Shown: one piece after another, positions 8,529 to 63,352 of the stretch
How positions within the stretch are numbered: the first letter of the stretch is position 1
Layout of the letters: each line of letters starts with the position of its first letter
DNA from: a virus
Length of the DNA: 64,000 nucleotides
Direction: 5' to 3' (one strand)
UHGV virus genome: UHGV-0091736
Made by a program: the position numbers and the translations under genes
Notes under the pieces: model-generated
Seen by the model: only the letters and a program-made list of their open reading frames with translations
What the model was told of the DNA's origin: nothing
Database searches by the model: none

Positions 8529-8552
8529 GAGAGTTACCATATCTACTACCAA

Positions 8553-27781: not shown

Positions 27782-27858
27782 TGGCGCACCGTGTAGGACT
27801 CCAACCTACAACCTATTTCTTAGAAGGAAATTGCTCTCTGCAATTGAGCTAACGGCGC
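27782..27858 (-). tRNA. tRNA-Arg (anticodon UCU), CCA encoded
   Basis: Hand-folded cloverleaf: GCGCCGT/ACGGTGC acceptor, GCTC/GAGC D stem, ATTTC-CTTCTAA-GAAAT anticodon arm, GTAGG-TTGGAGT-CCTAC T arm, G, CCA. 77 nt. Confidence 0.85.
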
Positions 27859-36333: not shown

Positions 36334-37206
36334 TTACTTATTAGCCTTAATGCAGTTGGCTAGATTAACGTGAACAGTATAAACAGCATTATCAGCGTTA
36401 TTATAAACGGTAGTGGCGATCATCGACTCCTTAACCGGACCATAACTCACTAGATTGGTTACAGCTTTAACGTCTTCATAACGTTGTACAGTACCAAATG
36501 TCACCATATCCGCATCATTATCAGTGCGCTTAAGCACCAAATCATTGTTAGGCTGATTATCTAGTGTTTTAGACTGAAAGAGAACGCCTTCATTTGTTAC
36601 GTTGCTAAACTTCATTTTTAAGACAATAGTATTGCCGTCACTATCCGCACCGTTGCAAATCATCCAACCTTTATTGATGGAACTAGAGAAGACACTAGCC
36701 GCATCAGTTGCAGGAGCAGGACTAGCAACAGCCTTATCAGAAAGAGATGTGACCAGTGCACTAACACCGATCGCTGCAACCAGTGCATAACTTGCCAGAT
36801 TAACAGACTTCATAATCTTACTTGCAACAGTAGGCTTGATTGGCTGTTTCTTGTTTTTCTTGTTCCATGCTTCAACCATGACAGACAAGCGGGATAATTC
36901 AGCTTTCACATCACGGCATGACTCAGGCCAATCTTTCTGATTCCAGCTATCTAAATTTGCTTGAATGTAGCAATTAATAGCGTCCTGCATATCGGTAAAA
37001 CCGTTCTCTTTGAACGTGCTTTCATCTTCACACTGTAAAGCGTTCGCAGTAGAGTTAATGATCAAGCAAGCCAGCATTACAGAGTTTTTGAATCCTTTAC
37101 GTGCACTTTCGTTTTCCATCCACGCATCAGGACTACCAACGGTTAAGCCTAAAGATGAAAGGTTTTCGTTTGCTTTGTTCAAGTGGTTAATTGCTACTTT
37201 AGACAT
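36334..37206 (-). CDS. hypothetical protein with central transmembrane helix (290 aa)
   Basis: ORF track. SYALVAAIGVSALVTSL hydrophobic stretch. First gene of the minus arm. Confidence 0.6.
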   Translation of the reverse strand: MSKVAINHLNKANENLSSLGLTVGSPDAWMENESARKGFKNSVMLACLIINSTANALQCEDESTFKENGFTDMQDAINCYIQANLDSWNQKDWPESCRDVKAELSRLSVMVEAWNKKNKKQPIKPTVASKIMKSVNLASYALVAAIGVSALVTSLSDKAVASPAPATDAASVFSSSINKGWMICNGADSDGNTIVLKMKFSNVTNEGVLFQSKTLDNQPNNDLVLKRTDNDADMVTFGTVQRYEDVKAVTNLVSYGPVKESMIATTVYNNADNAVYTVHVNLANCIKANK

Positions 37207-37424: not shown

Positions 37425-37849
37425 ACGGGGAACACACAACCGCAGGATAGACCACGGGGAAACATAGCCAGATAGTGCGGTAGTAATATACCACTTAAAT
37501 AATTAGTTAACTATTAATAGCATTACTCAAACATCAAAGACCATTCGCTACGCTCATGCACGCTGAAAAAGAAAAGAATAAAAAGAATATAATAACCATC
37601 AAACATAATCTTTCCACTTAATTAATACATATATCATTATTGCACTCATAATAACAACTATTGAAACTATTTACACTCAAACTATGGGGGATGGGATGGT
37701 TACTATACGGTATTATTAGACCTGTTATTATCACGCCTTAACAGAGTCTAGCCTTTCATCCACTCAGTAAAGGGGAACTAAATAAACGGGTAGGTAATGT
37801 AATAGATGACATATACGGGGAAAGAATAACGGGGAGTAGGCACGGGGAA
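37425..37849 (+). repeat. ACGGGGAA iteron-like repeats (at least 5 copies) flanking an AT-rich core (about 37490-37680)
   Basis: Copies at 37425, 37454, 37815, 37829 (ACGGGGAG) and 37842, plus AAGGGGAA at 37770. Confidence 0.6.
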
Positions 37850-39493: not shown

Positions 39494-39516
39494 GCCTCCG
39501 TTGGGAGGCTTTTTGT
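39494..39516 (+). terminator. Rho-independent terminator (plus)
   Basis: GCCUCC-GUUG-GGAGGC then UUUUUGUG. Confidence 0.65.
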
Positions 39517-39524
39517 GTTGTTGA

Positions 39525-39533
39525 TAATGTAGA
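39525..39533 (+). promoter_or_regulatory. TAATGTAGA promoter-like element
   Basis: 8/9 match to TAATGTATA, 12 nt before the 39545 ATG region. Confidence 0.4.
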
Positions 39534-39544
39534 AGGAGTATAAA

Positions 39545-40087: not shown

Positions 40088-40690
40088 ATGTCACTAGATA
40101 AACAAATTTATGAAGCTCTAACTGGTAACAATCTTAGTGTAGATGAAAAGAAAGCACTATTGAATATGTTGAAAGAGCGTGACCAATGGAGGAAGTATAA
40201 TAGGATTTTGTCTTTCAAGGCGTATGACTTCCAAAAGAAATTTTATGCAGCAGGATTGAAGCATAGGTTCAGGTTTCTCTGTGCGGCTAACCGAGTTGGG
40301 AAAAGTTACAGTGAAGCGTACGAATTCGCATGCCACGTTACCGGAAGATATCCAACATGGTGGACCGGTCATAAGTTTAAGAGGCCAATACTTGCGTGGG
40401 CTGTAGGGATTACAGGGGACTCAACAAGGAAAGTATTGCAAAAAGAATTATTTGGTACACCAATTGGAAAGGACACTAATCTGCTAGGTACTGGAGTTAT
40501 TCCACGAGATGCAATAGTAATAGATACTATAGAAAGGGATGGTAATAAGCTACAGATAGTACAGATTAAGCACCAGAATGAAAGGGGTGAGTTTGATGGA
40601 TTAAGTACGTTAGAATTTCGATCAACACAACAGGGTGAACATACACTGATGGGTGCTACTGTTGATTATATATGGCTGGATGAAGAGGAT
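40088..40690 (+). CDS. terL: terminase large subunit, exon 1 (ATPase through Walker B)
   Basis: CAANRVGKS (Walker A-like) and VDYIWLDEED (Walker B). The ORF then stops after 2 more codons. Confidence 0.8.
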
Positions 40691-40784
40691 TGTATATAAC
40701 ATAGCTAGAAGTGTTGGTCCTCTATAAACTCGGTGAATTGCTGGAACCTCTGACCCTTAAGTGGAAGACAATCAGCAGCGAAGA

Positions 40785-40793
40785 TAATGTATA
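40785..40793 (+). promoter_or_regulatory. TAATGTATA promoter-like element inside the terL intron, upstream of the HNH ORF
   Basis: Exact consensus, 85 nt before the 40878 start. Confidence 0.45.
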
Positions 40794-40877
40794 ACTTACT
40801 CATGATACATTATAACGTTCAACGACTATCGAAAGCATAGCCCGTATGGGTGAAGAAGCAAGTAGAGTAGATACCAA

Positions 40878-41456
40878 GTGGTATCGAAGTGCCGAGCAAA
40901 ACTAAGGAGTGATACATTGGGTAGACCTAACAAATCATTAGATTCAACCAAAACATGTTCAGTGTGCTCTGTAACAAAAGACATAGAATCTTTTGCAATA
41001 AGAACAAGAGCAATATCCACTGGAGAGGTTAGAATCTACCGTAAGTCTCAATGCAAAGAGTGCATGGCTGAGATGAGAAGGGATTGGGGTAAGAATAATC
41101 CAGATAAGATTCGTGAGAATAATAATTCTCCAAATAAGAGAGCTTGCGATAATGCAAGACGGGCTGGATTAGAAACTGCTTCTATTATCAGAGATGATGA
41201 GTATAATAAATTTGTTATGGAAGAAATGTATGAACTTCGAAATCTTAGAACAAAGGAAACTGGATTTCAATGGCATGTAGATCACATAATCCCTTTAAAA
41301 GGTAATAACGTATGTGGTTTTCATGTCTGGTATAACTTGCAGGTAGTTCCTGCTGTTTTCAACCTATCTAAGAGTAATAGTTTTGATGATATAGTCTGCT
41401 CTGCATGGAAACATGCAGCTGGAGAAATCCGGGATGAGATTAACGATCTTGTCTGA
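40878..41456 (+). CDS. HNH homing endonuclease (intron-encoded)
   Basis: [37 protein letters not shown]-terminal Cys pairs CSVC..CKEC. Confidence 0.85.
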
Positions 41457-41464
41457 ACAACACG

Positions 41465-42403
41465 CCATATGAGTCTATGGCTATATTCGCACAGTGCGTC
41501 ACACGTACACTCACAACTAAAGGTCTAGTTACAATTACAGCTACACCAGAGAACGGTTTAACTGAACTGGTAGATAAATTTATGAAAGGTGAAGGGGATG
41601 AGAACACAGGTTCTCTATATTTCCAGAATGCTTCTTGGTGGGATGCTCATGCAGACCTAGGTGGACATATCACTGACCAAGATATAAAAGATATGACTGA
41701 AGGTATTCCAGCGTGGCAGTTAGAGATGCGTTCGAAAGGTATGCCATTGTTAGGAAGTGGTTTGATATATGATGTATCGGATGACACAATTAAATGTGAA
41801 CCATTCGAAATTCCTGATACGTGGAAACGTGTCTGTGCAATTGATATTGGTATTGATCACCCAACTGCTGCTGTTTGGACAGCTTACGATGCAAACACGG
41901 ATACTGTCTATGTTTACGACTCATATAAAGAAGGTGGCTTTACTCCAGTGTATCATGCTCCAGCTATTAATGGTCGTGGTCAGTGGATTCCTGTCATCCT
42001 ACCGCATGATGCGGACAATATTGAGAAAGGTAGTGGATCATCTGTTGCTCAATTCTATAAGAATGCAGGAGTTAATGTACAGAGTGAGACCTTCTACAAC
42101 AAAATTGGAATGGATGGTAAAAAGAACTTCTTTGTAGAACCCGGAATCACAGATATCCGAGAAAGAATGATGAGTGGACGCTTTAAAATCTTTAACACAG
42201 CTGCTAACGCTAAGCTATTCGAAGAGAAAGCTAGATATCACCGCAAGGTTGGTAAGATTATTAAAGAACATGATGACTTAATGGATGCAATGCGCTATTC
42301 AGCGTGCTCTGTTACACATCGTGGTCGCTCTAAGCATGACGTTAGCTACGGAAGTGCTTCTCTGTATGAGGCAAACGTAAGCAGATGGAATCAGAGTTAC
42401 TAA
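41465..42403 (+). CDS. terL: terminase large subunit, exon 2 (ATPase C-motif and nuclease domain)
   Basis: ..TRTLTTKGLVTITATPENG.. (coupling motif) and CAIDIGIDHP.. (RNase H-like nuclease). Confidence 0.8.
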   Translation, partial: PYESMAIFAQCVTRTLTTKGLVTITATPENGLTELVDKFMKGEGDENTGSLYFQNASWWDAHADLGGHITDQDIKDMTEGIPAWQLEMRSKGMPLLGSGLIYDVSDDTIKCEPFEIPDTWKRVCAIDIGIDHPTAAVWTAYDANTDTVYVYDSYKEGGFTPVYHAPAINGRGQWIPVILPHDADNIEKGSGSSVAQFYKNAGVNVQSETFYNKIGMDGKKNFFVEPGITDIRERMMSGRFKIFNTAANAKLFEEKARYHRKVGKIIKEHDDLMDAMRYSACSVTHRGRSKHDVSYGSASLYEANVSRWNQSY

Positions 42404-42464: not shown

Positions 42465-44708
42465 ATGGCTAAGCAAAAATATAGTGAAGAGGTGTTGGAC
42501 GAGTTACGTGTTGACCTTCAACGTCGTTTTAATTACGCTCAAGGCTACGTGGACATGGCTGTTAAGGGCTATGCTCGTGAAGCTTGGGAATATTTCTATG
42601 GTAACTTACCTGCACCAGTAACTGCTGGCAGCTCTAGTTGGGTAGATCGTACTGTTTGGGAATCTGTTAACGGTACATTGCAAGATATTATTAACGTATT
42701 CTGTTCTGGTGATGAAGCAGTTACTTTCGTAGCTGACAACCAACAGGATTCTGATGCTGCTGATGTAGCAACTAAATTAGTCAACCAAATTCTTCTGCGT
42801 GACAATCCGGGATACAATATTATCTCTTCTGCTGCACAAGAATGTCTGGTTACTCGTAACTCTTTTATCAAATATTATTGGGATGAGCACACTTCTACTC
42901 AAACTGAAGAAGCTGAAGGTGTACCACCGGAAGCATTGGCTGCATATGTTCAGGGATTAGAAGCTGGTGGACTCAAGAATCTGGAAATCTTCACTGAAGA
43001 TAATGAAGACGGTACAGTAGATGTTAAAGTTACTTATGAACAAACTGTTAAACGTGTGAAAGTTGAATATGTTCCTTCAGAGCAAATCTTTGTTGATGAA
43101 CATGCTACCTCTTTTGCAGATGCACAATACTTCTGTCATCGTGTACGTCGTTCTAAAGAAGATCTGGTTGCTATGGGCTTCCCTAAAGATGAGATTGAAG
43201 CATTCAACGACTGGACAGACACGATGGACACCACTCAATCTACAGTTGCTTGGTCTCGTACTGACTGGCGTCAGGATATTGATGCTGATATTGGTACAGA
43301 TACCGAAGATATCGCTTCTATGGTTTGGGTTTATGAGCACTACATCCGTACTGGTGTTCTAGATAAGAATAAAGAGTCTAAACTCTATCAGGTTATTCAA
43401 GCTGGTGAGCATATCCTTCACACTGAAGAAGTAACTCACATTCCGTTTGTAACCTTCTGCCCGTATCCGATTCCGGGTTCCTTCTATGGTCAATCGGTCT
43501 ATGACATTACGAAAGATATTCAAGATTTACGTACCGCGTTAGTTCGTGGTTATATTGATAACGTCAACAATGCTAACTATGGTCGATACAAAGCTCTTGT
43601 TGGTGCATACGATCGTCGCTCTCTGCTTGATAACCGTCCCGGTGGAGTGGTTGAAATGGAACGTCAGGACGCTATTGACCTGTTCCCATACCATAACCTA
43701 CCTCAAGGTATTGACGGCCTCCTAGGCATGTCTGAGGAGCTTAAAGAGACACGTACAGGTGTAACCAAACTAGGCATGGGTATCAACCCTGATGTGTTTA
43801 AGAATGATAACGCTTATGCAACCGTAGGCTTGATGATGAATGCTGCACAGAACCGTCTCCGTATGGTATGTCGTAACATTGCTCACAATGGTATGGTTGA
43901 ATTGATGCGTGGTATTTACAGTCTTATCAGAGAAAACGGTGAAGTTCCTATTGAGGTACAAACACCTCGTGGTATGGTTCAGGTTAACCCTAAACAATTA
44001 CCAGCTCGTCATAATCTTCAAGTTGTTGTAGCTATCTCTCCTAATGAGAAAGCAGAACGTGCACAGAAACTGATTAGCTTGAAACAGCTGATTGCAGCAG
44101 ATGCACAGTTAGCACCTCTCTTTGGTTTGGAGCAAGATCGTTACATGACTGCACAGATCTTTGAGTTGATGGGTATTAAGGACACTCACAAATACCTTCT
44201 GCCTCTGGAACAGTATCAGCCTCCAGAACCTTCTCCGATGGAAATCCTCCAGCTCGAGATGACTAAAGCACAGGTTGAGAACGTACAGGCTTCTTCTCAG
44301 AAGATGATTGCTGATGCATTCGACCAACGTGAACGTACTACATTTGAACAGCAGAAAGCTGCGGATGAATTGAGTCTGCGTCAGGAAGAGTTGCAGTTCA
44401 AGCAAGAAAATGCAGCAGATGTTATGACTCTGGAAAACCGTAAAGAAGATAACAGCGCTACTCTGGAACAAGCTAAGCACAAGTTAGCTCTTATGCAACA
44501 GCAGGTCCGTCAATATGAATCTGTACTGAAAGAGTTGCAGATGGTTATGGAACATCAGGTTGACCAAGAGAAGCTTAATGAACAATCACGCATTCAAAAC
44601 AAGACTTTGGAACTCCAAAAGAAAGAAGCTAATGTAACTAAGAAAGAGCAACAAGCTTCTCTCAAAGATTCACGGATTCCAGGCAAACGTCTTGGAAGTA
44701 AAAAGTAA
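42465..44708 (+). CDS. portal protein (747 aa) with long C-terminal coiled coil
   Basis: Size and position after terL. Coiled-coil tail rich in Q/E/K. Confidence 0.7.
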   Translation: MAKQKYSEEVLDELRVDLQRRFNYAQGYVDMAVKGYAREAWEYFYGNLPAPVTAGSSSWVDRTVWESVNGTLQDIINVFCSGDEAVTFVADNQQDSDAADVATKLVNQILLRDNPGYNIISSAAQECLVTRNSFIKYYWDEHTSTQTEEAEGVPPEALAAYVQGLEAGGLKNLEIFTEDNEDGTVDVKVTYEQTVKRVKVEYVPSEQIFVDEHATSFADAQYFCHRVRRSKEDLVAMGFPKDEIEAFNDWTDTMDTTQSTVAWSRTDWRQDIDADIGTDTEDIASMVWVYEHYIRTGVLDKNKESKLYQVIQAGEHILHTEEVTHIPFVTFCPYPIPGSFYGQSVYDITKDIQDLRTALVRGYIDNVNNANYGRYKALVGAYDRRSLLDNRPGGVVEMERQDAIDLFPYHNLPQGIDGLLGMSEELKETRTGVTKLGMGINPDVFKNDNAYATVGLMMNAAQNRLRMVCRNIAHNGMVELMRGIYSLIRENGEVPIEVQTPRGMVQVNPKQLPARHNLQVVVAISPNEKAERAQKLISLKQLIAADAQLAPLFGLEQDRYMTAQIFELMGIKDTHKYLLPLEQYQPPEPSPMEILQLEMTKAQVENVQASSQKMIADAFDQRERTTFEQQKAADELSLRQEELQFKQENAADVMTLENRKEDNSATLEQAKHKLALMQQQVRQYESVLKELQMVMEHQVDQEKLNEQSRIQNKTLELQKKEANVTKKEQQASLKDSRIPGKRLGSKK

Positions 44709-47662: not shown

Positions 47663-47669
47663 AACTAGA

Positions 47670-47697
47670 CCCTGCCTTCGGGCGGGGTTTTTCGTTT
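47670..47697 (+). terminator. Rho-independent terminator (plus)
   Basis: CCCUGCC-UUCG-GGCGGGG then UUUUUCGUUUU. Confidence 0.7.
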
Positions 47698-47720
47698 TAA
47701 GACCTATACAAGCTAGTGTG

Positions 47721-47729
47721 TAATGTATA
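47721..47729 (+). promoter_or_regulatory. TAATGTATA promoter-like element
   Basis: Exact consensus, 34 nt before the 47763 ATG and just after the terminator. Confidence 0.55.
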
Positions 47730-47762: not shown

Positions 47763-48515
47763 ATGGCAATGCCAGACGTTCAAAACCCAATCAATACCTA
47801 CGGATGGCTTAAGAAGGCTGTGTCCCTCTGGGCTGACCGTGATGACTCTGAATTTATCAATCAAATTCCAAACTTTATTAATTTTGCAGAGAAAGAGATT
47901 TATCGTAACTTACGTATTCCTCCTCTGGAAAAAGAAGTCTATCTAGGGATTAAAGATGGTATAGCTTATATTCCACCAGATTATCTAGAGGCTCAATGGA
48001 TGATGAGAGCTGTGGATGGTTCAATATTTCAAGTGACTTCTCCAGAAGAGATAAGCTATCGAAGACAGCATGGGGCTATTAACTCTTCACATTGGAATAA
48101 CCAACCTGTTAATTTTGCACGGTTTGGAGCACGCTTCTTATTCTACCCTAGAATCAATGCAGATGTTCCACATTACCCTGATGATGGTAGTCCGATTGTT
48201 CCAGCAGAGAACTCCGTAATTTTAAGCTATTATGCAGATCCTCCGGAGTTTCATGAAGATGGTGATACAAGTGCGATTCTCACTATTGCACCAGAACTTC
48301 TTTTGTATTTTACTCTGAGGCATGCATGTTTATTTGTTCAAGATGATAATGGGGTTCAAAAGTGGTCTGCTTTAGGTAAGGCTATTCTTGATGAGCTAGT
48401 AGAACAAAGTAAGAAACAAGAATACTCTGGTTCTCCAATTGCTATACCTAATAACATGTCTAGGCTCCAGAGCAGCTTGCCAGATGTTTATGGAATACGT
48501 ACCTCACGAATATAA
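47763..48515 (+). CDS. putative head-tail adaptor/connector protein (250 aa)
   Basis: Position after the capsid module. Functional call is tentative. Confidence 0.4.
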   Translation: MAMPDVQNPINTYGWLKKAVSLWADRDDSEFINQIPNFINFAEKEIYRNLRIPPLEKEVYLGIKDGIAYIPPDYLEAQWMMRAVDGSIFQVTSPEEISYRRQHGAINSSHWNNQPVNFARFGARFLFYPRINADVPHYPDDGSPIVPAENSVILSYYADPPEFHEDGDTSAILTIAPELLLYFTLRHACLFVQDDNGVQKWSALGKAILDELVEQSKKQEYSGSPIAIPNNMSRLQSSLPDVYGIRTSRI

Positions 48516-51500: not shown

Positions 51501-52091
51501 TTCGATGTTAAGCAGGCTATGGTATCAGAACTCCCTAGCGGACGCACTGTACAGTTAGAACGCTTTAACTGGGATGCCAGCAATATCATCGGCGACGATA
51601 ACACTGGTACTCGTACTGGCCTGAACCTGTTTGAGACTCAGAGAGTATCCAGTATGTCGCGCTGTAACATTCAGGTGCATATGCGACAGCCTAGTTCGGA
51701 CCTGTACTGCTTTATGTATTTCAGGCCAAATGATACAACATTCAGTGACTGTACCTTTGAGGTATTGCCATATAATTGGTCTTGTACATCTGGTAATCCT
51801 ATATTTTTTGGCAGTACAGGCGTCCCAGCGTCTGGAATGCGCGTCAGGTTTCCTAAACAAATTTCGTTCACGTTGTCAGCCGGGAGTAACGTCCAACGCG
51901 TTACTGCTTCGGGAAGTTATGCTTGGGTGGCCCGGGCGGATGCTCTTGACCCCCGCAGTATTTCTGGGCAATTTGATGCTCCCGCATCATATACGGGGGC
52001 AAATAACGGGCAGTTGGTAGGTCTAGGCTGGCAGCTTGACGGTATAGAGCATGTTTATGATCATAATGTGTATCTTCAGAATTTCAACTGA
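48525..52091 (+). CDS. tail fiber/tailspike (1188 aa) with probable beta-helix (depolymerase-like) C-terminal half
   Basis: Collagen-like GQPGRDGTDG. The C-terminal half shows repetitive Gly/Asn/Ser-rich strands typical of right-handed beta-helices. Confidence 0.6.
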   Translation: MISYNNSAPTSVNNVGQFGATEGSIGAYKSAAEYAADAKYWALLSQTKYSSVEDILAEVERLYAQGQLLESDIKQLRDDFEAQEQVLLGLIQSTGTAIDNTNAATELSREATQEVLAQLDIISNMTVQTALLPPGSLATGSYDNSTGVFTFGIPEGQPGRDGTDGTVSDIGNVPVGVPVVDDYGFYVDKDDGGLYRANMSDIANLVPSIRSISINGGAEQTGSVVFDSVSTFNGRKGAVVPATGDYTAAQVGAFSVTNNLSEITDTSAAITNIGLAEYGIGSPTLTTVEALDWQTFNFVNGGNYSTLMSNITNAPAEIAYPANFGLYIEVIGVLTGGGEVRVVPRTNNNNYYSVFSVRWTGIVGSRVFTVREELSSARPVTISQGGTGSTSAENARLALVAAKSGDNSDITSMTNKVTFTQPPVVPDAVDDNNAVTLRQLRNSSDSDGVIANKQAIARKFGVEQSEVVYFSAGAALSGYKVIYDKESQKAYSLPTDLDSDVTAISLSTAGVLVHSAGNVDLGGLAVTREEYVTLPGSFSTGVTVNTKNELVVFTDGKYRWEGTLPKVVAAGSTPASTGGVGSGAWVSVGVISLRTTISSTTGSTLVGYKYKLENSASIRNVADVLNERVSLWDFHCDSSGNIIQPGPSIDSRPYLQNAIDFVSSVGGGTLLIPQGYTWYLNSISTGPVSGHSGLIQLKSNVSIKLDGTVKVGPALANSSFQVFVGFTDGNPANSGNLDNCHIFGEGSIDFGGYDFADAGHLRNGIAFGKGYNCSVDGITFVNGDVTWGITLGWNGYGSDSHVRNCRFINLIQSEVNRDHSTVYVNCPFSGVSNCTFRASSARAKVIACTVELHQQNTYYRNSIISGYTRGCYVALHGAESAGAGAYLYNAEVSGVIGDISGQAVILAAGPDDTATTYINGLTVSNCRFTAGNHPGMCSFIDFFQDDNSDSSQYRINHVTVKGCSFIVDRGRSLSAAITLNGSIQGITFQDNFFDVKQAMVSELPSGRTVQLERFNWDASNIIGDDNTGTRTGLNLFETQRVSSMSRCNIQVHMRQPSSDLYCFMYFRPNDTTFSDCTFEVLPYNWSCTSGNPIFFGSTGVPASGMRVRFPKQISFTLSAGSNVQRVTASGSYAWVARADALDPRSISGQFDAPASYTGANNGQLVGLGWQLDGIEHVYDHNVYLQNFN

Positions 52092-52101
52092 TAATATAAA
52101 A

Positions 52102-52123
52102 ACCCCGCTTCGGCGGGGGTTTA
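52102..52123 (+). terminator. putative terminator (weak U-tract)
   Basis: CCCCGC-UUCG-GCGGGG then GUUUAG. Confidence 0.4.
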
Positions 52124-52186
52124 GTAGTAAGTGTGTTCAAGAAGTAATGAAACTAGTATATCACAAAAGGAATACACATAGGAGAT

Positions 52187-52411
52187 ATGAAGATGAAAAT
52201 GATGAAACAAATCAGTTATGGATTAGCTTGTGTTGCTACTGGTTTTGCTGTGTCAGTGGCTGTTCCTGTTAACGCAGTGCATCCTCTGGCAACGCAACCT
52301 GCACCAGTTGAGAAATTGAGTGCATCCTGTAAGCAGCGTACAATTCAAAATAATCTTGTGGTTATTTGTCCGGACTCTGATTCTAGTGCTCTGAGAAATA
52401 TGCTTCAGTAA
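52187..52411 (+). CDS. small secreted protein (signal peptide ..VPVNA|VHP), lysis-region
   Basis: MKMKMMKQISYGLACVATGFAVSVAVPVNA. Adjacent to the endolysin. Confidence 0.5.
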   Translation: MKMKMMKQISYGLACVATGFAVSVAVPVNAVHPLATQPAPVEKLSASCKQRTIQNNLVVICPDSDSSALRNMLQ

Positions 52412-52441
52412 TTTAGGGCTGGCTAGAAAGGGAGGTGAAAG

Positions 52442-52933
52442 ATGGATAATGTCGCATTGCCGCCGATACAACGGAGCTTAAGCCCAGAAGGGATGGAATT
52501 CATCATGAAGCATGAAGGCATGAGAACTCGTGCTTACCAAGATTCCGCAGGTATCTGGACAATATGTGTTGGGGCTACGCGCGATATGAATGGGTATCCA
52601 GTTAGACAAGGATTAACGTATTCTATAGAGGATTGTCTAGCTCTGCTAGATAGAGACACACAAGACTCTGTTCGTGCTACTCAAAAGAACATAAAGGTTC
52701 CTTTACTAATGCATGAGTTTGATGCACTCACTTCTTTCAACTTCAATGTTGGCAGTGGGGCTTTGAGCACATCTAAGTTAAGGAAGGTTATCAATGGAGA
52801 AGTGAAAGGAGATGTTTATTCAGAATTTCTTCGTTGGGATAAAATCACGGTTAAAGGGGAGAAACGGAGAAGTCAGGGTCTTCATAACAGAAGGGTTGCA
52901 GAAGCCGATCTTTATACCGAAGCTAAATATTAA
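52442..52933 (+). CDS. endolysin, GH24 lysozyme-like
   Basis: ..MKHEGMRTRAYQDSAGIWTICVG.. (E/D/T catalytic pattern). Confidence 0.8.
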   Translation: MDNVALPPIQRSLSPEGMEFIMKHEGMRTRAYQDSAGIWTICVGATRDMNGYPVRQGLTYSIEDCLALLDRDTQDSVRATQKNIKVPLLMHEFDALTSFNFNVGSGALSTSKLRKVINGEVKGDVYSEFLRWDKITVKGEKRRSQGLHNRRVAEADLYTEAKY

Positions 52934-52945
52934 TGGAGGTGCCTC

Positions 52946-53749
52946 TTGGCTATTGAAACTAATGCGGTAGTAGTTACCGACTTAAACCCTCTCTATCCTC
53001 GTGATAGAGATTATATTTATGAGGGTGCAGCTCAGCTGCGCCTAGTTAAACAGGTGTTACAAAACACTTTTCCTAATCTGACAGAGCCTATGACTGTTGA
53101 TTCTGATACTCTAGCCGCCATCTCTGACAAAATCTCTTTTGCTGGAGATTATATGGACGTTGGCGGTCTTATGATTAAGAATGGTACAGCGGGTACTGGT
53201 AATAATGACTTTACCACCAAAGCTCAAATGGAATCTTTTATGCTCAACTGGATGCAAAACAAGATCTATAGGGTTGGCTCTTATTACATCACTGAGGAAG
53301 ACATTAACCCGGGAGATTCTACATCTTTAGGATTCGGTATATGGACAGCTGTTACTGGTGTTATCATGGGTGCTGGGGTTGTGAACCCTGATGGAACAGT
53401 TCCTAATGCTCAACGTGTGGAATTTACTGCTGGTGCTACCGGTGGTCGTGTTTACAATACAGTTAAGACAGAGAACCTGCCTTTAACTACAATCTCTGGT
53501 TCTAGTTTCTCTCTTTCTAATTACACACACTCCCACACAACAACGTTTGGACGGGGGGATGCTAGTGGTCATAACAGCTCACCTAACTGGTACAGCCCGG
53601 GTAGTGGATATTCTGCTGTTACAAGTTCTGATACTCACACCCACTCTATCACGGGCAGTGCAACATTTGGTTATGATGACGTATCTCGTCAACCTATAAA
53701 TACGTTACCACCTTTCCGTGCAGCATATATCTGGAGACGTATTAGTTAA
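52946..53749 (+). CDS. tail fiber-like protein with HxH repeats (TTG start)
   Basis: NYTHSHTTT..DTHTHSITG. GGAGGTG SD 5 nt upstream of the TTG. Confidence 0.55.
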   Translation: MAIETNAVVVTDLNPLYPRDRDYIYEGAAQLRLVKQVLQNTFPNLTEPMTVDSDTLAAISDKISFAGDYMDVGGLMIKNGTAGTGNNDFTTKAQMESFMLNWMQNKIYRVGSYYITEEDINPGDSTSLGFGIWTAVTGVIMGAGVVNPDGTVPNAQRVEFTAGATGGRVYNTVKTENLPLTTISGSSFSLSNYTHSHTTTFGRGDASGHNSSPNWYSPGSGYSAVTSSDTHTHSITGSATFGYDDVSRQPINTLPPFRAAYIWRRIS

Positions 53750-53758
53750 GGAGGAAGT

Positions 53759-56716
53759 ATGGCTCTCTACCCAATAAAATCTTTGGGTGCGGTTGGTGTT
53801 ATTGCCGACCAATCTCCTACGGATCTGGCTCCTAATGCATTTACCAATGCAATCAACGCTCGGTTTGTAGAACAACGTGTTTTTAAAACGGGGGGCTCTG
53901 CCCCTCTTTCTTACGTCGAGAGTGATAAAGAAATAAAACCATTATCATTCACTTCAATGCCTTTTGACTACTTCAGTGCTAACAATAGTTTCTTACTGGT
54001 AGGTACAGATAAGAGTATTTTTAGATTAAATAATGAATCTATGGTTGATGTTAGTCGAAGAGTGGCTACAGTCACCAAAAAAGCCGTGTCTTATATTAAG
54101 ATAAATCCTGTATTAACAGAGATTGTCCCTAAAGAAACATCTGTCATTATGAATTTTAATGAAAGCAAGGTTCTCGAGGTATCTCTTCTTCCAGAGGGTG
54201 TTACTACTCCATCTCTTGTGTGGGAGGTTAGTAACCCTTCTTATGGCTCAATACTAGTTGATCCTGATGACAGTAAGAAAGCTACATTGAGTGTCTTGTC
54301 TAATGAGGGAAGTTTCACTGTCACTGTCTCCAATGAAGATGAATCTGTGACTGCCAGTATTTCTATAAAGGTAGTTGATTCAGATTCTGGTATCTTCCTT
54401 AATCGAGACTCTGTCCAACTCCGGAAAGGTGGAACAACCACACTTACAGCAACAACAAGTAAGACCCCTCTGACGTGGACTTCTTCTAACCCAGCTATTA
54501 TCTCTGTATCACCTAATGGGGATACTACTACGGCTGTACTTACTGCTCAGGGGGTTGGAAACGCTCTTATTACTGTAAGCAACGGTTCCAAAACCTCAGA
54601 ATGCTCTGTTATCGTTATTAATCAGATTGACAGTATCTCTTTGAGCCAAACAGATTTACAAATTAACCGAGGGACGTCTTATGTCCTATACGCTAGTCTA
54701 ACTCCATCAAATGCTGCAAATCAGAAGATAACTTGGACTTCTTCTAACCCCAATATTGCCACTGTTTCAGGAACGGGTCTTCAAGGCACTGTTTCTGGTC
54801 TCACAGCCGGGTATACAGTTATAACAGCAACTACTGAAGAAGGTGAAAGGACAGCCACCTGTACTGTTAGGGTTGATTTATCAAGCAGGATGCTTTTTGC
54901 TGCTGCATCAGTTCCTTCTGAAGAACCAAGTTCTATGAATTCAGATATTGACACTTCGGCTATGTCAGAGGGAAACTCTTTTTATGACTACTCTATGGTT
55001 GATGGTGTCGAAGCCTATTCCATAAACGAAGTCATGTCAAGATCTACTCAACTCGAAACACTAACTTTAGACATTGTGGATACTGAAATTAATGTTGGAG
55101 ACGAGCTAGTGATAACCGCAACAGCGGCCCCTGAAGGGGATTACCTTTATACTTGGGTTGTTGATCAACCGGGGTATATATCTTCAACTTCTACTACAGA
55201 TTCTTCTTTTACTTTAACTGCTATTAAGACTGGTAAGGTGAAAATAACCTGCACTGCTAGTCAAGTGGCCCAGAGGGATTATGAAGCTTTTGAGGAGTAC
55301 CCTTGGTATAATACGATTATTTCTAACTGCGCTGTATTCACTACTCACTATGAAACTCCTCAGGTAAAAGAGTTTGCCTCTGAGTATTTCACAGATCTTC
55401 CGGGGTGGGGAGAACAGACGATAGTTGATGCTGATGGGAACCCATCTGTTGTGAAGTACAATTGGAAATGTGAAAGGGTTCGTGCTTTTAACAATCGCCT
55501 ATTTGCTCTTAATATGCGAGAGTCTAATGCATCAGGGGTTACCACTCATTACCCTCTTCGCCTTCGCTGGTCTAACTATGCTAATGAGAATAAGGCACCT
55601 ACCTTATGGGATGATTTTGCTTACGATAGGTATGTGACTTCAGACTTAGCGGCAAATGTTGTAGGACAAACTGAGGCTCTAGAAAATGGATATGCTGGGT
55701 ATATAGACTTAGCTGATTCAAACGGAAGTTTAGTTGAAGTTCTTCCTCTTAAGGATTACCTGTTTATCTATACAGAGTTTGAAACTTACATCGGATCCCC
55801 AACTAACAACACATATCAGCCTTTAATGTTCAAGAAGCTTTTCAACGATTCTGGAATCTTAGCACCTGAGTGCGTAGTTGAAGTTGAGAGTGGTCATTTT
55901 GTGGTTACTCAGAACGATGTTATTCTACACAATGGAGCAACCAAGAAATCTATTGCATCAAACAGGGTTAAGAATCTTCTCATTAATGAGGTGTGCTTAG
56001 TAAACCCTTTGGCTACTAAAGTTCATCTTCACCAAGACAAGAAGGAAGTGTGGATTCTTTATGTAGGACCCGGAGAACCTGCTGGGAGCTTTGCTTGTAC
56101 GAAAGCCGCTGTATGGAACTATGAGTTTGATACGTGGTCTTTCCGTACAATCCCATTCTCTCATTGTATTGGTTTAGTCGATCCTCCTACTTTAGAGAAA
56201 GGTCCTACTTGGGTTGATTTCCAAGAGTACACTTGGGATGACCCTTCAATCAGTGAACTTGTGTGGAGAAAGGATTCTACTAACTTCCGTCAGAGAGTTA
56301 CTGTAGTAGGTTCTTGGATGAAAGGTTTTTACCAAGTGGACATAGGTCCTTATGACTACTCTTATGATAGGCTGAATGATATTGTTGTCAAAAAGCCTCT
56401 AGAGATGAGACTGGAAAGAACTGGTATAGATTTTGACAACGTAACTAATGAATGGAATCAAAAGCACATAAACCGATTCCGTCCACAAGTAACAGGGTCA
56501 GGTACCTATATATTTCAAGCTGGTGGTAGTCAGTATTCTGATCAGGAAGATAGACATATTCACAGTGAAAAGTCTTATACAATTGGTGTGGACAGACATG
56601 TAGGTGTCCGACTGAACCATCCGTATCTATTCTATAATGTTATAGATAATGATGTTAACAGTAATGCAGCTATCAATGGTCTAACTATTGAGTTTGCTGT
56701 TGGCGGGCGAAGATAA
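53759..56716 (+). CDS. large virion/tail protein with tandem Big_2 Ig-like domains (985 aa)
   Basis: Repeated ..L..G.T..LTA...P.....V.W.SSNP..A.V...G.. units around aa 120-370. Confidence 0.6.
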   Translation: MALYPIKSLGAVGVIADQSPTDLAPNAFTNAINARFVEQRVFKTGGSAPLSYVESDKEIKPLSFTSMPFDYFSANNSFLLVGTDKSIFRLNNESMVDVSRRVATVTKKAVSYIKINPVLTEIVPKETSVIMNFNESKVLEVSLLPEGVTTPSLVWEVSNPSYGSILVDPDDSKKATLSVLSNEGSFTVTVSNEDESVTASISIKVVDSDSGIFLNRDSVQLRKGGTTTLTATTSKTPLTWTSSNPAIISVSPNGDTTTAVLTAQGVGNALITVSNGSKTSECSVIVINQIDSISLSQTDLQINRGTSYVLYASLTPSNAANQKITWTSSNPNIATVSGTGLQGTVSGLTAGYTVITATTEEGERTATCTVRVDLSSRMLFAAASVPSEEPSSMNSDIDTSAMSEGNSFYDYSMVDGVEAYSINEVMSRSTQLETLTLDIVDTEINVGDELVITATAAPEGDYLYTWVVDQPGYISSTSTTDSSFTLTAIKTGKVKITCTASQVAQRDYEAFEEYPWYNTIISNCAVFTTHYETPQVKEFASEYFTDLPGWGEQTIVDADGNPSVVKYNWKCERVRAFNNRLFALNMRESNASGVTTHYPLRLRWSNYANENKAPTLWDDFAYDRYVTSDLAANVVGQTEALENGYAGYIDLADSNGSLVEVLPLKDYLFIYTEFETYIGSPTNNTYQPLMFKKLFNDSGILAPECVVEVESGHFVVTQNDVILHNGATKKSIASNRVKNLLINEVCLVNPLATKVHLHQDKKEVWILYVGPGEPAGSFACTKAAVWNYEFDTWSFRTIPFSHCIGLVDPPTLEKGPTWVDFQEYTWDDPSISELVWRKDSTNFRQRVTVVGSWMKGFYQVDIGPYDYSYDRLNDIVVKKPLEMRLERTGIDFDNVTNEWNQKHINRFRPQVTGSGTYIFQAGGSQYSDQEDRHIHSEKSYTIGVDRHVGVRLNHPYLFYNVIDNDVNSNAAINGLTIEFAVGGRR

Positions 56717-56720
56717 TACT

Positions 56721-56750
56721 AAGGGAGCTTCGTGCTCCCTTTTCTTGTTT
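56721..56750 (+). terminator. Rho-independent terminator (plus)
   Basis: AAGGGAGC-UUCGU-GCUCCCUU then UUCUUGUUU. Confidence 0.65.
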
Positions 56751-56766
56751 ATAAGAAGGAGGTTAT

Positions 56767-57735
56767 ATGGGTGCTGGTGGCTTTCGTAAGAATACCGGAA
56801 GAAACAACACAACACAACCTTATAGTGTGGGTTTTCTAAACACCTCTGAGAGTGTAGAAACTAATAACGTTGCGATATATGATGAACTTCAGAATATTAG
56901 TACTGCAACTAATCAAATGTTCCAAGCTATAGATGAAATTCATGAGGAGATTGATGTTCGTATTAAAGCTCTTCATGCTATGAATTTACAATTCGACGAA
57001 CTAGAGAATCGTGTTACGACAGAGATTGAGACTGCCATTGCAGATATCATAACACAAATGGGTAATCTATCCACTGATGATATTTGGGATAACTCTGTTC
57101 AGCCTCCTGTTAAGTTAGATTCAACTATGTCTGGTATTAAGACTTCTATAGAAGGCAATACAGCATCTATTCAAACTGTCGAAGGCATTGTCAATGATCA
57201 AGGACAAGAGATTGCCCTTATTCAGTCTGATTTAACTAACGGGACAGGTAGTGCTTCTCAATATATGAAACTCACTGAATATGAAGCTACTTGGGGAGTA
57301 AATTCCACAGTAAATGGAAAGACAGCAGGGGTAAAACTGACAAATAATGGTTCTATAAGCCAATTCCAAGTCACAGCTGATAAGTTTGTGGTATCTGATG
57401 GCACATCAGGAAGTACTCCCTTCAAGGTTGAGAATGGAAGGGCTGTTATGGAGTTTGCTGATATTACTAATGTCAATATTACAACAGCTCAAATAGCAAC
57501 AGCTAGGATTGAATGGGCACAGATTGATAATGTCAGTATAACAAATGCACAAATCACAAGTCTCTCCGCTGATAAGATAACGGCTGGTTCTATGTCAGGA
57601 ACTAACTGGCGTCTTACAGTTGGTGGTGACTTTGTTTTAGGTGGTACAGGTGGGGCGCAGTTGTGGATGAATGGTAACAGAATAGACTTCTATGATGGAA
57701 GTGGTGCTCTGAGAATTAGAATAGGGAGTTGGTAA
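56767..57735 (+). CDS. tail fiber/host-recognition-like protein (322 aa)
   Basis: Coiled-coil N-terminus. ..ADKFVVSDG.. and ..SADKITAGSM.. motifs are common in phage fiber proteins. Confidence 0.45.
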   Translation: MGAGGFRKNTGRNNTTQPYSVGFLNTSESVETNNVAIYDELQNISTATNQMFQAIDEIHEEIDVRIKALHAMNLQFDELENRVTTEIETAIADIITQMGNLSTDDIWDNSVQPPVKLDSTMSGIKTSIEGNTASIQTVEGIVNDQGQEIALIQSDLTNGTGSASQYMKLTEYEATWGVNSTVNGKTAGVKLTNNGSISQFQVTADKFVVSDGTSGSTPFKVENGRAVMEFADITNVNITTAQIATARIEWAQIDNVSITNAQITSLSADKITAGSMSGTNWRLTVGGDFVLGGTGGAQLWMNGNRIDFYDGSGALRIRIGSW

Positions 57736-57736
57736 T

Positions 57737-58768
57737 ATGGCATATGGAATATGGTGTCAACCTGTAGGGCCGGGGCCAGCAACCCCCGCTCCCTTGTTTA
57801 TTGATAGCGGAAGTACTTTCCCTCAGTTCAAGAACAGCATAAGAGGAAGTTTTAACTTTAATGGGGCTGGAAGATCCTTCCCTATTAATGGGTGGGATGG
57901 TAGTGGTCAGATAGTTATTGTTCCTACCGGTTCTTTATGTTGGCAGTGGGAAGTCCCTCCTAACTTAGTTCCTGATGTTTATTGTGTGAATAACATCTAC
58001 GTAGAAAACAACTCCTCTTTTAGAGTTACTCTGAATCAGAACCCTGGCAGTAACCCATTATTCGACTGTGGGTTCAACGTATACCAAATATGGCCTAGAG
58101 CAGATAGGAATTATGGAATTACCTTTTCCAATACAGCAGACTACTTCTCAATATCTGATAGTGGGGTCGTCGGTCAATGTATTTGGGCTTGGCAGGGAAC
58201 TATAGGTAACTCCCTTCAAATACCAAATATTGGTGGTTTTAATATGGCTAATGCTGTTGTGTTTGCCAACTGGTCTGATGGAGGGATAGGACTATCTTAC
58301 ACATCCGATGACAGAATTATTCGCGTCTATCAGAATAGACCTTATGTCAATGGAAACACTAATGAAGGAGGGTCTGTCTTTGCGAGGGTTGCCGTATTCT
58401 GTAATGGAGCTGGTGTTCCTGAGCATAATGGAGGTTTGAATATTTACTCTCCGGGTACCACTCAATGCGTCTTCTCTACTAACAGAACACCTTTCACTGT
58501 GGATACTTTTATAGGCTCAGGAGGTGGTGACACTGGAATGTCATACCCTATGATACCTCTTACTTCTGGAATAGGTGCAATAAAAGGGCGAGGCAGTGGA
58601 TGGAGATATCAGCAAATGAGATCTCACACAATGAGTGGTTCTACGATAGGAACTGGCTATGGAAGGTATTTGTTTCAGTGGGATCAAAATTATGACCTAG
58701 GAGCTGATACTGTAGTTAATTTATCAGTTCCTGTAATAAATGCAGCTAAGGTTTTTGCTGGACTATAA
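57737..58768 (+). CDS. structural hypothetical protein (343 aa)
   Basis: ORF track; synteny. Confidence 0.5.
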   Translation: MAYGIWCQPVGPGPATPAPLFIDSGSTFPQFKNSIRGSFNFNGAGRSFPINGWDGSGQIVIVPTGSLCWQWEVPPNLVPDVYCVNNIYVENNSSFRVTLNQNPGSNPLFDCGFNVYQIWPRADRNYGITFSNTADYFSISDSGVVGQCIWAWQGTIGNSLQIPNIGGFNMANAVVFANWSDGGIGLSYTSDDRIIRVYQNRPYVNGNTNEGGSVFARVAVFCNGAGVPEHNGGLNIYSPGTTQCVFSTNRTPFTVDTFIGSGGGDTGMSYPMIPLTSGIGAIKGRGSGWRYQQMRSHTMSGSTIGTGYGRYLFQWDQNYDLGADTVVNLSVPVINAAKVFAGL

Positions 58769-58780
58769 CAAGGAGATATT

Positions 58781-59563
58781 ATGGCAATTAAGATGGGTAT
58801 TGAAGAACTAGACCCAATGGTTCAACAGGCTTCAAAGAAGTATGGGATTCCTGCTGCTTTGATTCATGCTGTAATCCAAAGAGAGTCTAGTGGTCGTCCT
58901 ACAGTAGCCTCTGGAACTGGTCCTGTAGGTTTAATGCAAATCAGTAAAGGGTTGGCTAAAGACTATGGTTACAAATTAGAAGACAGACTTGACCCAGCAA
59001 AGAATATTGATATGGGTGCTCGTTATATTCGAGATAACTTAAAGGCTTTTAATGGTGATGTTAAGAAAGCAATGGTTGGTTACTCAGAAGGTATCGGCGG
59101 AGCTAAGCAAATGTTCGCTGGTAAAAAGGGATTTACACCTCAAGCCCTTGACTCAATGAACAACAAACACTTTCTCCCTTTCTATGGTGATGCAGCTTCT
59201 CAGATTGCTAACCCTGTTGGAGCTTTGCAAGCTGTTCAACCAGTCAATCAGTTTAGTCCTGACTTGTTAGATAGAGAGAAGGCCGCACAAGCTCCAACTC
59301 AGGCAGAGATTGCTGCTTCTAAGACCGGTGCTTTAGGTGGTAATCCAGTAGAGTTTTACTCTGATGAAGTACAGGAAGGTGAAAACCAGAAACCTCAACA
59401 GAACTTTGGTAATGCAGTATTAGGGGTAGCTGCTATGCTTGCTGGTAAACCTCCTACTTCTCAAACAGTTCAGAGGGCGAGTGCACCACATGCAGCAGGT
59501 TCTCAGTACAGTCTACAAACACAAGCAGTGCTCAGACGTTTGGCTAGCATTGGTGTAAAGTAA
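58781..59563 (+). CDS. virion-associated lytic transglycosylase (SLT domain)
   Basis: AVIQRESSGRP..GPVGLMQI motif. Confidence 0.75.
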   Translation: MAIKMGIEELDPMVQQASKKYGIPAALIHAVIQRESSGRPTVASGTGPVGLMQISKGLAKDYGYKLEDRLDPAKNIDMGARYIRDNLKAFNGDVKKAMVGYSEGIGGAKQMFAGKKGFTPQALDSMNNKHFLPFYGDAASQIANPVGALQAVQPVNQFSPDLLDREKAAQAPTQAEIAASKTGALGGNPVEFYSDEVQEGENQKPQQNFGNAVLGVAAMLAGKPPTSQTVQRASAPHAAGSQYSLQTQAVLRRLASIGVK

Positions 59564-59582
59564 TAATCTTTAAGGAGGACTT

Positions 59583-60635
59583 ATGTCTTTATTTGGAAAA
59601 TCAGCTTCTAGCAAAACCACAGTGGCCCCTTCCTCTCAGGTTGATGCCCTGCTGAAGCAGATTGTTGCTAATGCTCAGAATATGCAGAACAACGATCCGG
59701 GATTCATCTCCCAACAGCTGGCTGGGTTCAATGGCAACCAACAGGGTGCTCTGAATAACTTAGCGGCTTCTACAACTCAGAAGCAATTAGCTGATATGTA
59801 CACTCCTCGTACACAGCAAGGGTTGGACCAATTAAACTCTCTTGCACAACAGTATCAGAATATTGTCAATGGTGGTGGTCTAACTGCTGATGGTGTTAAT
59901 AACTTCAGTAAAGGATTGAATAGCTCAGCTCTTGCTCAAGCGACTAGTAAGGCAGCTTCCAATGTATCTCTCGGAAATGGTTCTGATTCAGGCTCTCTCC
60001 GTAGAGCTGCTGCTCAAGGTGCTGCTTTGAACAGTGCTAATACAAACTTAGCTCGTACTATCAGTGGCAAGAATATGGGAATCAGTGCTCTTCAACAAGA
60101 CCAAAACTTCCAGAGGGGCTTACTTGGTGCTCAGTCAGGGTTGGCTGGACAGAACCTCAACCTAGGTGCTCAAGGTGTTCAGGCAACTCAACAAGCTATC
60201 CAGAATCAACTCATGGCTGGTAATCTACAACAGCAACAAGCTCAAGCTCAAGCTGATATTAATTGGCAGAACGCTATTGGCTCTCAGCAGTATGGGTGGA
60301 ATCAGCTTAACAACCAACTTAATGTATTAAATAGTGTAAGCCCAATGGCTGGGTACACGATTAAGAATGCTGCTCCGGGGGTTAATACTGGACAACAGCT
60401 CCTAGGTGCTGGTATCACTGGATTAGGTATTGCAGGGCGTATGGGTGCTTTCTCTCCTAATCAACAGACTCAGAATGCTTGGAGTTCCTATAACAACTCA
60501 GGTGGGCAATCTGGAATGGCTGGACCTATGATTGGAGGTTCTAATCTTTCTCAACAGAGAGGTCAGTCTAACTGGTTATCCACAGCAGGTAGTAATATCT
60601 TAGGTGGTGTCTTAGGGGCATTTGGAGCAAACTAA
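59583..60635 (+). CDS. Q/N/G-rich internal virion protein, paralog A
   Basis: Starts MSLFGK. Conserved ..GFNGNQQGALNNLA.. and ..GWNQLNNQL... Confidence 0.55.
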   Translation: MSLFGKSASSKTTVAPSSQVDALLKQIVANAQNMQNNDPGFISQQLAGFNGNQQGALNNLAASTTQKQLADMYTPRTQQGLDQLNSLAQQYQNIVNGGGLTADGVNNFSKGLNSSALAQATSKAASNVSLGNGSDSGSLRRAAAQGAALNSANTNLARTISGKNMGISALQQDQNFQRGLLGAQSGLAGQNLNLGAQGVQATQQAIQNQLMAGNLQQQQAQAQADINWQNAIGSQQYGWNQLNNQLNVLNSVSPMAGYTIKNAAPGVNTGQQLLGAGITGLGIAGRMGAFSPNQQTQNAWSSYNNSGGQSGMAGPMIGGSNLSQQRGQSNWLSTAGSNILGGVLGAFGAN

Positions 60636-60647
60636 AGGAGAATATCT

Positions 60648-61616: not shown

Positions 61617-61629
61617 TTAGGAGATAAAT

Positions 61630-63285: not shown

Positions 63286-63292
63286 GACCTAA

Positions 63293-63337
63293 GTCCTGCC
63301 TTCTATAATGTATATAGGGGGTAGGACATTTTTATTT
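63293..63337 (+). terminator. Rho-independent terminator whose loop contains TAATGTATA
   Basis: GUCCUGCC-N19-GGGUAGGAC then AUUUUUAUUU. Loop spans 63301-63319. Confidence 0.55.
63306..63314 (+). promoter_or_regulatory. TAATGTATA promoter-like element
   Basis: Exact consensus, 39 nt before the 63353 ATG. Confidence 0.5.
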
Positions 63338-63352
63338 ATAAAAGGAGACGTT

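Follow-up and report, generated by a model that had tools for sequence, protein, structure and literature searches.

A recurrent 9-mer in a phiEco32-like coliphage marks probable gp36-dependent promoters and recurs inside a predicted terL intron

The closest described system is that of coliphage phiEco32, for which four later papers citing Pavlova 2012, our source for the promoter positions, give six experimentally mapped gp36-dependent promoters, those of genes 6, 13, 26, 40, 58 and 68, which carry tAATGTAtA and start transcription 6–8 bp downstream (PMC4331800, PMC8948821, PMC4281155, PMC12276001). The experiments behind these assignments comprise primer extension, in vitro transcription and a cryo-EM open complex (PMC12276001, PMC8948821, PMC4331800). 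In Table S3 of PMC8948821, P6 is TAATGTAgA, P13, P26, P40 and P58 are TAATGTATA and P68 is aAATGTATA, and the same promoter set is predicted in NJ01, ECBP2, KBNP1711, SU10 and 172-1. Cryo-EM work from 2025 on the open complex that gp36 and gp79 form at P68 found base-specific contacts at A-14, A-13, T-12 and G-11 and further showed that activity needs -37G and -34A, which gp36 R187 and Y186 contact (PMC12276001). The same work reports that the gp36 holoenzyme transcribes P26 and P68 in vitro and that gp79, an RNA polymerase-binding protein that silences sigma-70 transcription while activating the gp36 holoenzyme, stimulates P26 4-fold (PMC12276001). We number promoter positions as published, with the motif at -15 to -7.

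Other phages offer partial parallels. Phage 7-11, from a related group, also places a phage-encoded sigma factor on the host core enzyme and has promoters at equivalent genome positions, but its gp47 late promoters are clearly bipartite (GTAAtg-(16)-aCTA; PMC8948821). The consensus sequence differs from that of phiEco32; phage 7-11 lacks both a gp79 homolog and a middle class, and its sigma factor is only ~15% identical to gp36. The late promoters of T4 have the sequence TATAAATA, are read by gp55 and are activated through the sliding clamp. In both T4 late and gp36 promoters, specific recognition by a phage-encoded sigma-like factor depends mostly on short -10-type elements; gp55 and gp36 are unrelated proteins, and gp36 promoters additionally use a -35 contact. 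Finally, T4 introns contain internal middle or late promoters for their intron endonucleases (PMC2988022).

The window analyzed here, a stretch of 64,000 nucleotides from virus genome UHGV-0091736, derives from a phiEco32-like coliphage of the genus Kuravirus whose closest GenBank relatives are ~93% identical. It is colinear with phiEco32 in permuted order at 73–98% nucleotide identity, and a gene-by-gene tblastn map agrees (Table 1). The equivalent of phiEco32 26.7–39.2 kb, the segment that holds the gp36 sigma gene, is absent from the window. An exact look-up of the gp25-homolog protein led to a 76.6-kb metagenomic contig (ENA ERZ28589921, scaffold_19) that matches window positions 51630-64000 at 100% identity over 12,371 bp (0 mismatches, 0 gaps), and a second look-up joined the window's other side, giving an assembled genome of 76,558 bp. 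The 12.6 kb beyond the window hold both P40 and the sigma gene. The earlier note had recognized no sigma-like gene in the window and had presumed one elsewhere, which proved right: tblastn finds no gp36 homolog in the window (E>1), and a gp36 ortholog lies 7.5 kb past its right end. This protein is identical to phiEco32 gp36 at 211/214 residues (98.6%) and keeps 10/10 published DNA-contact residues (W90, Y83, R84, N95, S91, S94, E79, H80, R187 and Y186); gp79 is 100% identical. We compared promoters across GenBank records and introns across a large protein and contig index; IMG/VR yielded very few Kuravirus contigs. Rfam at gathering level gave no match over the whole window, missing even the tRNA-Arg(tct) that ARAGORN places at 27782-27858(-), the counterpart of phiEco32 tRNA-Arg, and the introns described below were picked up afterward by local permissive scans.

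Table 1. Features of the window and the assembled genome. Positions refer to the window unless stated otherwise; transcription start sites (TSSs) are predicted, as is the assignment of genes to promoters.
Feature	Position (strand)	Elements	-38 to -33	Remarks
Minus-strand genes	1-37924			= phiEco32 39.2-77.5 kb
Plus-strand genes	37750-64000			= phiEco32 1-26.7 kb
P58 ortholog (middle)	3610-3618(-)	TAATGTATA, -15 to -7	AAGAAA	predicted TSS ~3603
Gene-58 homolog	3256-3573(-)			putatively driven by P58; terminator 3252-3229 after gene
P68 ortholog (middle)	8520-8551(-)	AAATGTATA 8520-8528 + TGGTAG 8546-8551	TGGTAG	predicted TSS ~8513
Gene-68 homolog	8150-8479(-)			putatively driven by P68 ortholog
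gp79 ortholog	15228-15476(-)			82/82 residues identical to phiEco32 gp79 (tblastn, 15231-15476)
P6 ortholog (late)	39494-39533(+)	TGGGAG 39502-39507 + TAATGTAGA 39525-39533	TGGGAG	predicted TSS ~39540
terL exon 1	40088-40690			
Predicted group I intron in terL	40691-41464(+)			774 bp; after TerL residue 201
Candidate intron-internal gp36 promoter	40762-40793(+)	TGGAAG 40762-40767 + TAATGTATA 40785-40793	TGGAAG	
HNH-type homing endonuclease ORF	40917-41456(+)	AAGGAG RBS		in intron
terL exon 2	41465-42403			
P13 ortholog (late)	47667-47729(+)	TAAGACCTA 47698-47706 + TAATGTATA 47721-47729	TAAGAC (full shared block TAAGACCTA, -38 to -30)	predicted TSS ~47736
Gene-13 homolog	47763-48515			putatively driven by P13 ortholog
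P26 ortholog (late)	63283-63327(+)	TAAGACCTA 63283-63291 + TAATGTATA 63306-63314	TAAGAC (full shared block TAAGACCTA, -38 to -30)	predicted TSS ~63321
gp36 ortholog	genome 71524-72168(-); L050 19895-20539(-)			214 aa; 7.5 kb past window's right end
P40	genome 73989-73997(-)	TAATGTATA		outside window
Seventh site	genome 74179-74187(+); L052 15018-15026, minus strand; phiEco32 (L001) 36704-36712(+)	TAATGTATA	TGGTAG	outside window

Five motif sites in the window are base-for-base orthologs of published promoters, each with the published sequence variant. All five occupy intergenic DNA in the direction of transcription and immediately precede the orthologs of genes 6, 13, 26, 58 and 68, the downstream genes on which orthology is anchored, at distances of 12–41 nt from the start codons; for example, the site at 3610(-) is the ortholog of phiEco32 42937-42945(-), upstream of phi32_58. 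Nothing substantive sets the five apart from phiEco32, which has the same element, per-site variant, downstream genes and strand arrangement (middle on minus, late on plus). AATGTA is invariant at the five positions in phiEco32, SU10, ES17, Paul, NJ01, ECBP2 and KBNP1711; the one exception is ES17, in which an HNH gene immediately before gene 58 accounts for the lack of a recovered P58 copy. We read the motif as the recognition element of gp36 promoters and the five window sites as P58, P68, P6, P13 and P26, with a probability of about 0.93. This reading is supported by identity and synteny with validated promoters, by conservation across the family and by a genome that encodes both protein factors, and we infer start sites and gp36 dependence in the present phage by analogy with phiEco32. 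The consensus that the earlier note gave for these promoters, tAATGTAtA, matches the published one and Table S3 of PMC8948821. The motif and the six promoter positions, including predictions in relatives, are already published phage biology; the intron-borne copy, a conserved divergent site beside P40 and a generalized -35 signature are unreported.

On the gp36 reading, the motif would act as a -10-like element (-15 to -7) for the E. coli RNA polymerase core carrying gp36. According to the published phiEco32 work, the N-terminal domain of gp36 reads A-14, A-13, T-12 and G-11, with DNA melting from -11, its C-terminal domain contacts the -35 region at -37 and -34, and gp79 displaces sigma-70 and stabilizes gp36. 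Here, transcription would start 6–8 bp downstream of the motif, from two middle promoters on the minus arm, P58 (3610) and P68 (8520), and three late promoters on the plus arm, P6 (39525), P13 (47721) and P26 (63306).

The five sites occupy varied local contexts. At P58, unrelated upstream DNA (3–4 contexts in different phages) joins a conserved block that begins at the motif; the upstream sequence is the stop codon of a PhoH-like gene here and gene 59 in phiEco32. In two more distant relatives from IMG/VR (L040 and L041), the P58-equivalent position reads TATTGTATAC in place of TAATGTATAC, an A-14 to T change that hints at shifted sigma specificity in that lineage. P68 differs from its phiEco32 counterpart only in the spacer and at -40, and here has an HNH gene nearby: a free-standing HNH_3 endonuclease ORF (8748-9272(-)) replaces part of the phiEco32 gene 69-71 region upstream. 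Across 8 genomes the P13 promoter block hardly varies; the terminator stem upstream of it does vary in sequence, and its pairing is kept. The claim that several copies immediately follow intrinsic terminators holds for P6, directly after a terminator at 39494-39509, and for P13, directly after one at 47667-47690, but not for 63306, where the motif lies inside a hairpin. There, the P26 element is embedded in the loop and stem of a 15-pair terminator-like hairpin (63293-63327) followed by a ATTTTTATTT T-tract, and the predicted start at ~63321 falls within the 3′ arm, so that transcripts from it would not include the 5′ arm; the same hairpin could terminate read-through from gene 25. The P26 element and its -38 to -30 block are identical to those of phiEco32, the TAA within the block is the gene-25 stop codon, and the gene-26 homolog starts at 63353. 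At P6, the Shine-Dalgarno sequence of gene 6 (AGGAG, 39534-39538) precedes the predicted start, which lies 5 nt before the ATG at 39545, so gene 6 would be nearly leaderless on P6 transcripts if the published 6–8 bp spacing applies.

Exact copies of the motif are overrepresented and confined to non-coding DNA in the window. The four exact copies of TAATGTATA (3610-3618(-), 40785-40793(+), 47721-47729(+) and 63306-63314(+)), all present as first listed, compare with 0.61 expected (at least 4 in 0/100 shuffles); with 1000 dinucleotide shuffles the expectation is 0.81, and 4 copies were reached in 7/1000. All four lie in the non-coding 11.4% of the window and all four are co-oriented with local transcription. 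A count over the complete reassembled genome, which the earlier note had proposed as a check, gives 6 exact copies against 0.86 expected (0/500 shuffles), and 8 of the 9 genome-wide matches to the published degenerate consensus [TA]AATGTA[TG]A fall in the non-coding 10.2%. Looser matches behave differently: one-mismatch copies in the window are not enriched (19 vs 21.8 expected), 11/15 one-mismatch matches are within coding sequence, and the AATGTA hexamer overall shows no enrichment (44 vs 47 expected), while copies of AATGTA that are both non-coding and co-oriented do exceed expectation (8 vs 2.5, P = 0.003). Because the one-mismatch class overall is at chance level, the motif alone predicts poorly outside intergenic DNA. 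Intergenic enrichment and a sigma-like gene, the absence of either of which had been named as grounds against the promoter interpretation and both of which could be computed, favor it.

The sites also share a weak -35 signature. R-37 R-36 N A-34 fits all five window sites and every independent context (4 unrelated P58 upstream regions and 2 P40 versions), and agrees with -37 and -34, the positions critical in the cryo-EM study; TGGTAG at P68 includes both -37G and -34A. Because the signature fits every independent context, the description of the consensus as single-element, taken over in the earlier note, is outdated: it fits the view of 2012–2022, but the 2025 structure shows a required -35 contact. 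TGGNAG-N18-AATGTA occurs 4 times genome-wide against 0.066 expected and TAAGAC-N18-AATGTA twice in the window against 0.017 expected, counts to be read with the patterns having been chosen partly post hoc from the same data. P13 and P26 have TAAGACCTA in common, 14 nt from the motif in both and invariant in all relatives examined, and this block may be an extra element at -38 to -30. P6 lacks it despite being late. We dropped the idea of class-specific (middle or late) -35 elements, since P6 (late) and P68 (middle) both carry TGGNAG and TAAGACCTA occurs only at P13 and P26.

Beyond these promoters, further matches were considered one by one. Eight sites had been proposed as promoters, of which the five orthologs stand, 30644(-) and 37794(+) are at chance level and the intron copy is a candidate only. 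The one-mismatch sites at 39525 (TAATGTAGA), 8520-8528(-) (AAATGTATA) and 30644-30652(-) (GAATGTATA) are as listed, while the one given as 37794 with a single mismatch is actually 37795-37803, TAATGTAAT, with two. We rejected 30644(-) (GAATGTATA), which is inside the gene-116 homolog and kept only as coding sequence; 37795(+), whose core is broken (TAATG-AAT) in phiEco32, SU10, ES17 and NJ01, 4/5 relatives; and 34821(-), which falls within the early-promoter tract. For scoring, a full-width 43-column weight matrix (12 sequences) was discarded as overfit and penalizing the spacer, in favor of an informative-column matrix trained only on published-position promoters. The ninth-best score in the genome (16.3 vs 17.7 for P58) belongs to TAATGTATT at 60320-60328(+), with TGGAAT at -38 to -33, inside the gene-23 homolog and 320 nt upstream of gene 24; this match is probably due to chance. 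Outside the window, a seventh site combines an exact TAATGTATA with TGGTAG at -38 to -33 (Table 1). It occupies a ~594-bp non-coding stretch that separates the gene-40 homolog from the gene-41 homolog, on the strand opposite all neighboring genes and divergent from P40. It is absent from the six published promoters, is kept in phiEco32, SU10, ES17, Paul and the present genome, and could make an antisense, non-coding or origin-priming RNA.

The remaining exact copy lies within an insert in terL, for which the label of intron is supported. The insert scores 45 bits over the full length of RF00028 (local E 4.7e-10), below the gathering score of 50; the last nucleotide is U in exon 1 and G in the intron, and predicted splicing restores DEED/PYES as in phiEco32 TerL. 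The intron 3′ core is 84–88% similar to T4-type td and DNA-polymerase introns. The endonuclease ORF has no Pfam match above cutoff but shows an HVDHIIP...N motif, and PF01844 (HNH) is present in distant homologs. The intron, and with it the extra motif copy, is absent from phiEco32, as it is from all 50,697 GenBank phage records searched, in which only the 3′ core matches T4-type introns. By contrast, homologous introns occupy the same terL site in ~22 further contigs of the large contig index. The intron is common in uncultured Kuravirus-sized contigs and falls into two clades (36 and 19 endonuclease sequences) that invariably share one terL insertion site; IMG/VR yielded only distant homologs of the endonuclease.

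Other genes of this phage are also interrupted. The gp75 homolog (primase/helicase) is split into residues 1-516 at 14090-12543 and residues 509-596 at 11946-11683 by an insert (11947-12542(-)) that contains an HNH_3 ORF (12113-12448) and matches the group I intron model below gathering (40.6 bits, E 8e-9); no TAATGTATA-like element is found in it. The DNA polymerase gene is likewise split, with its N-terminal part at 504-2225(-), an HNH_3 ORF at 47-442(-) and a 51-aa C-terminal exon outside the window, and the group I intron match in this region (window 1-533 and, beyond the left edge, L052 12143-12718) is weak (27.5 bits, E 6e-5). The PhoH-like protein (3630-5348(-)) measures 572 aa rather than 247 aa owing to an in-frame insert of ~324 aa in the P-loop with intein-like junctions (APAG/C...GN/CGKT); Pfam detects no intein domain in it at E<=0.01.

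Sequence of promoter grade in the terL intron is clade-specific. Under the informative-column matrix the intron copy ranks joint first in the genome, on a par with validated promoters, and 0.47% of positions match its -35 score. Among 23 copies compared, all 11 in the window's clade keep TAATGTATA and TGG[A/T]AG. The same 9-mer forms the 5′ arm of an 8–9 bp stem whose 3′ arm is ATACATTA at 40805-40812, and the single stem change within the clade is a C to T in the 3′ arm that gives G.U (L055). All 11 copies of the sister clade instead read TAATGGATA with 3′ arm ATTCATTA, through a T-10 to G change and a partner change of A to T: a G.U pair is kept and the AATGTA core is broken (AATGGA), while promoter P6 in these contigs is normal (TAATGTAGA). 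One distant intron copy (L049) has an unrelated stem sequence. Transcription is predicted to start at ~40800, within the loop of the hairpin and 117 nt before the endonuclease start codon. RNA folding gives an RBS unpaired probability of 0.33 in the pre-mRNA context and 0.57 in a transcript from 40800, a weak difference, with the start codon mostly paired in both.

Alternative explanations for the motif set as a whole fare poorly at the five orthologous sites. One possibility is that the host sigma-70 holoenzyme reads the sites, with or without gp36, the motif being an unusual -10 element. A sigma-70-like match (9/12 positions, TTGGGA-16-GATAAT) does overlap P6, so that some sites could serve both holoenzymes, and the SU10 genome paper suggests possible dual recognition of some middle promoters (PMC4281155). 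A scan for TTGACA-(16-18)-TATAAT, however, finds no such match over P13, P26, P58 or P68 and no enrichment in these regions; transcription from P26 and P68 is gp36-dependent, gp79 inhibits the sigma-70 holoenzyme, and the cryo-EM structure has gp36 reading A-14 to G-11 (PMC12276001). We regard this sigma-70 reading of the sites as very improbable. A compositional or chance recurrence without function would account for the AATGTA total (44 vs 47) and the one-mismatch set, both at chance level, and for 30644(-) and 37795(+), which behave as chance matches. The count, placement, orientation, orthology and conservation of the exact copies all oppose it, making it the least credible reading of the set; chance is ruled out for the five orthologous sites and remains only for 30644(-), 37795(+) and 34821(-).

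For the intron copy, we tentatively propose, at a little short of even odds, that in one clade of the terL intron, which would have spread among uncultured phiEco32-like phages, a P6-type stem arm has turned into a gp36 promoter (TGGAAG-N17-TAATGTATA), a proposal that carries with it the conserved divergent site (TGGTAG-N17-TAATGTATA) and the shared TAAGACCTA. The competing view, which applies to this copy only and which we find about equally plausible, is that TAATGTATA at 40785 is merely the 5′ arm of a P6a/P6b-like structural stem, that its likeness to a promoter is coincidental and that terL pre-mRNA or the excised intron serves as the message for the endonuclease. Pairing between the 9-mer and 40805-40812 is perfect, and cmscan puts the 9-mer in the extension of stem P6. 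In the 11 sister-clade copies the pair is kept as G.U while AATGTA is broken, with promoter P6 normal there; because pairing persists despite loss of the core, the stem is certainly under selection for RNA structure. The stem sequence of L049 is unrelated. Conservation of TGGAAG at -38 to -33 extends to the clade that lacks the core, so this hexamer may be part of the conserved core of the intron and not of a promoter, and since terL is already transcribed late from P6, a separate late promoter is not obviously needed. A coincidence is harder to square with the ~0.001 exact sense-strand 9-mers expected by chance in the ~226 nt upstream of the ORF, with the joint-first matrix rank of the site, or with retention of the 9-mer in 11/11 copies of the window's clade, where the one change to the stem affects the opposite arm (L055). 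No such motif occurs in the genome's two other intron-like inserts, and T4 introns provide a precedent for internal late promoters (PMC2988022). Because the sister clade keeps the stem and breaks the motif, we put promoter function at 40785, where the site may serve as a gp36 promoter for the homing endonuclease, at about even odds.

The candidate intron promoter resembles an arrangement known from T4. As in the T4 td, nrdB and nrdD-type introns, a group I intron (here a predicted one) in a phage gene contains an endonuclease ORF, with a promoter-like element for the phage's late machinery inside the intron and upstream of the ORF, placed so that a short transcript would lack the 5′ intron structure. 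The sigma system differs (gp36 here, gp55/gp33 in T4), and here the element doubles as an intron stem. Sequestration of the RBS by 5′ structure, a feature of the T4 introns, is not convincingly predicted here, and because terL is itself late, the rationale cannot be T4-type temporal separation from an early gene.

Together, our results show that a tool-free reading of raw sequence found a real regulatory system. For synthetic biology, gp36 with its promoter is of interest as an orthogonal sigma/promoter pair. In annotation, the motif is a reliable marker of middle and late transcription units across a phage group that includes phage-therapy candidates such as ES17, and the generalization of P68-type -35 contacts to all promoters of the family would bear on the distinction between middle and late classes. 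If the intron copy is indeed a promoter, the endonuclease would be made from a separate late transcript unable to splice, the solution of the T4 introns reached with an unrelated sigma system.
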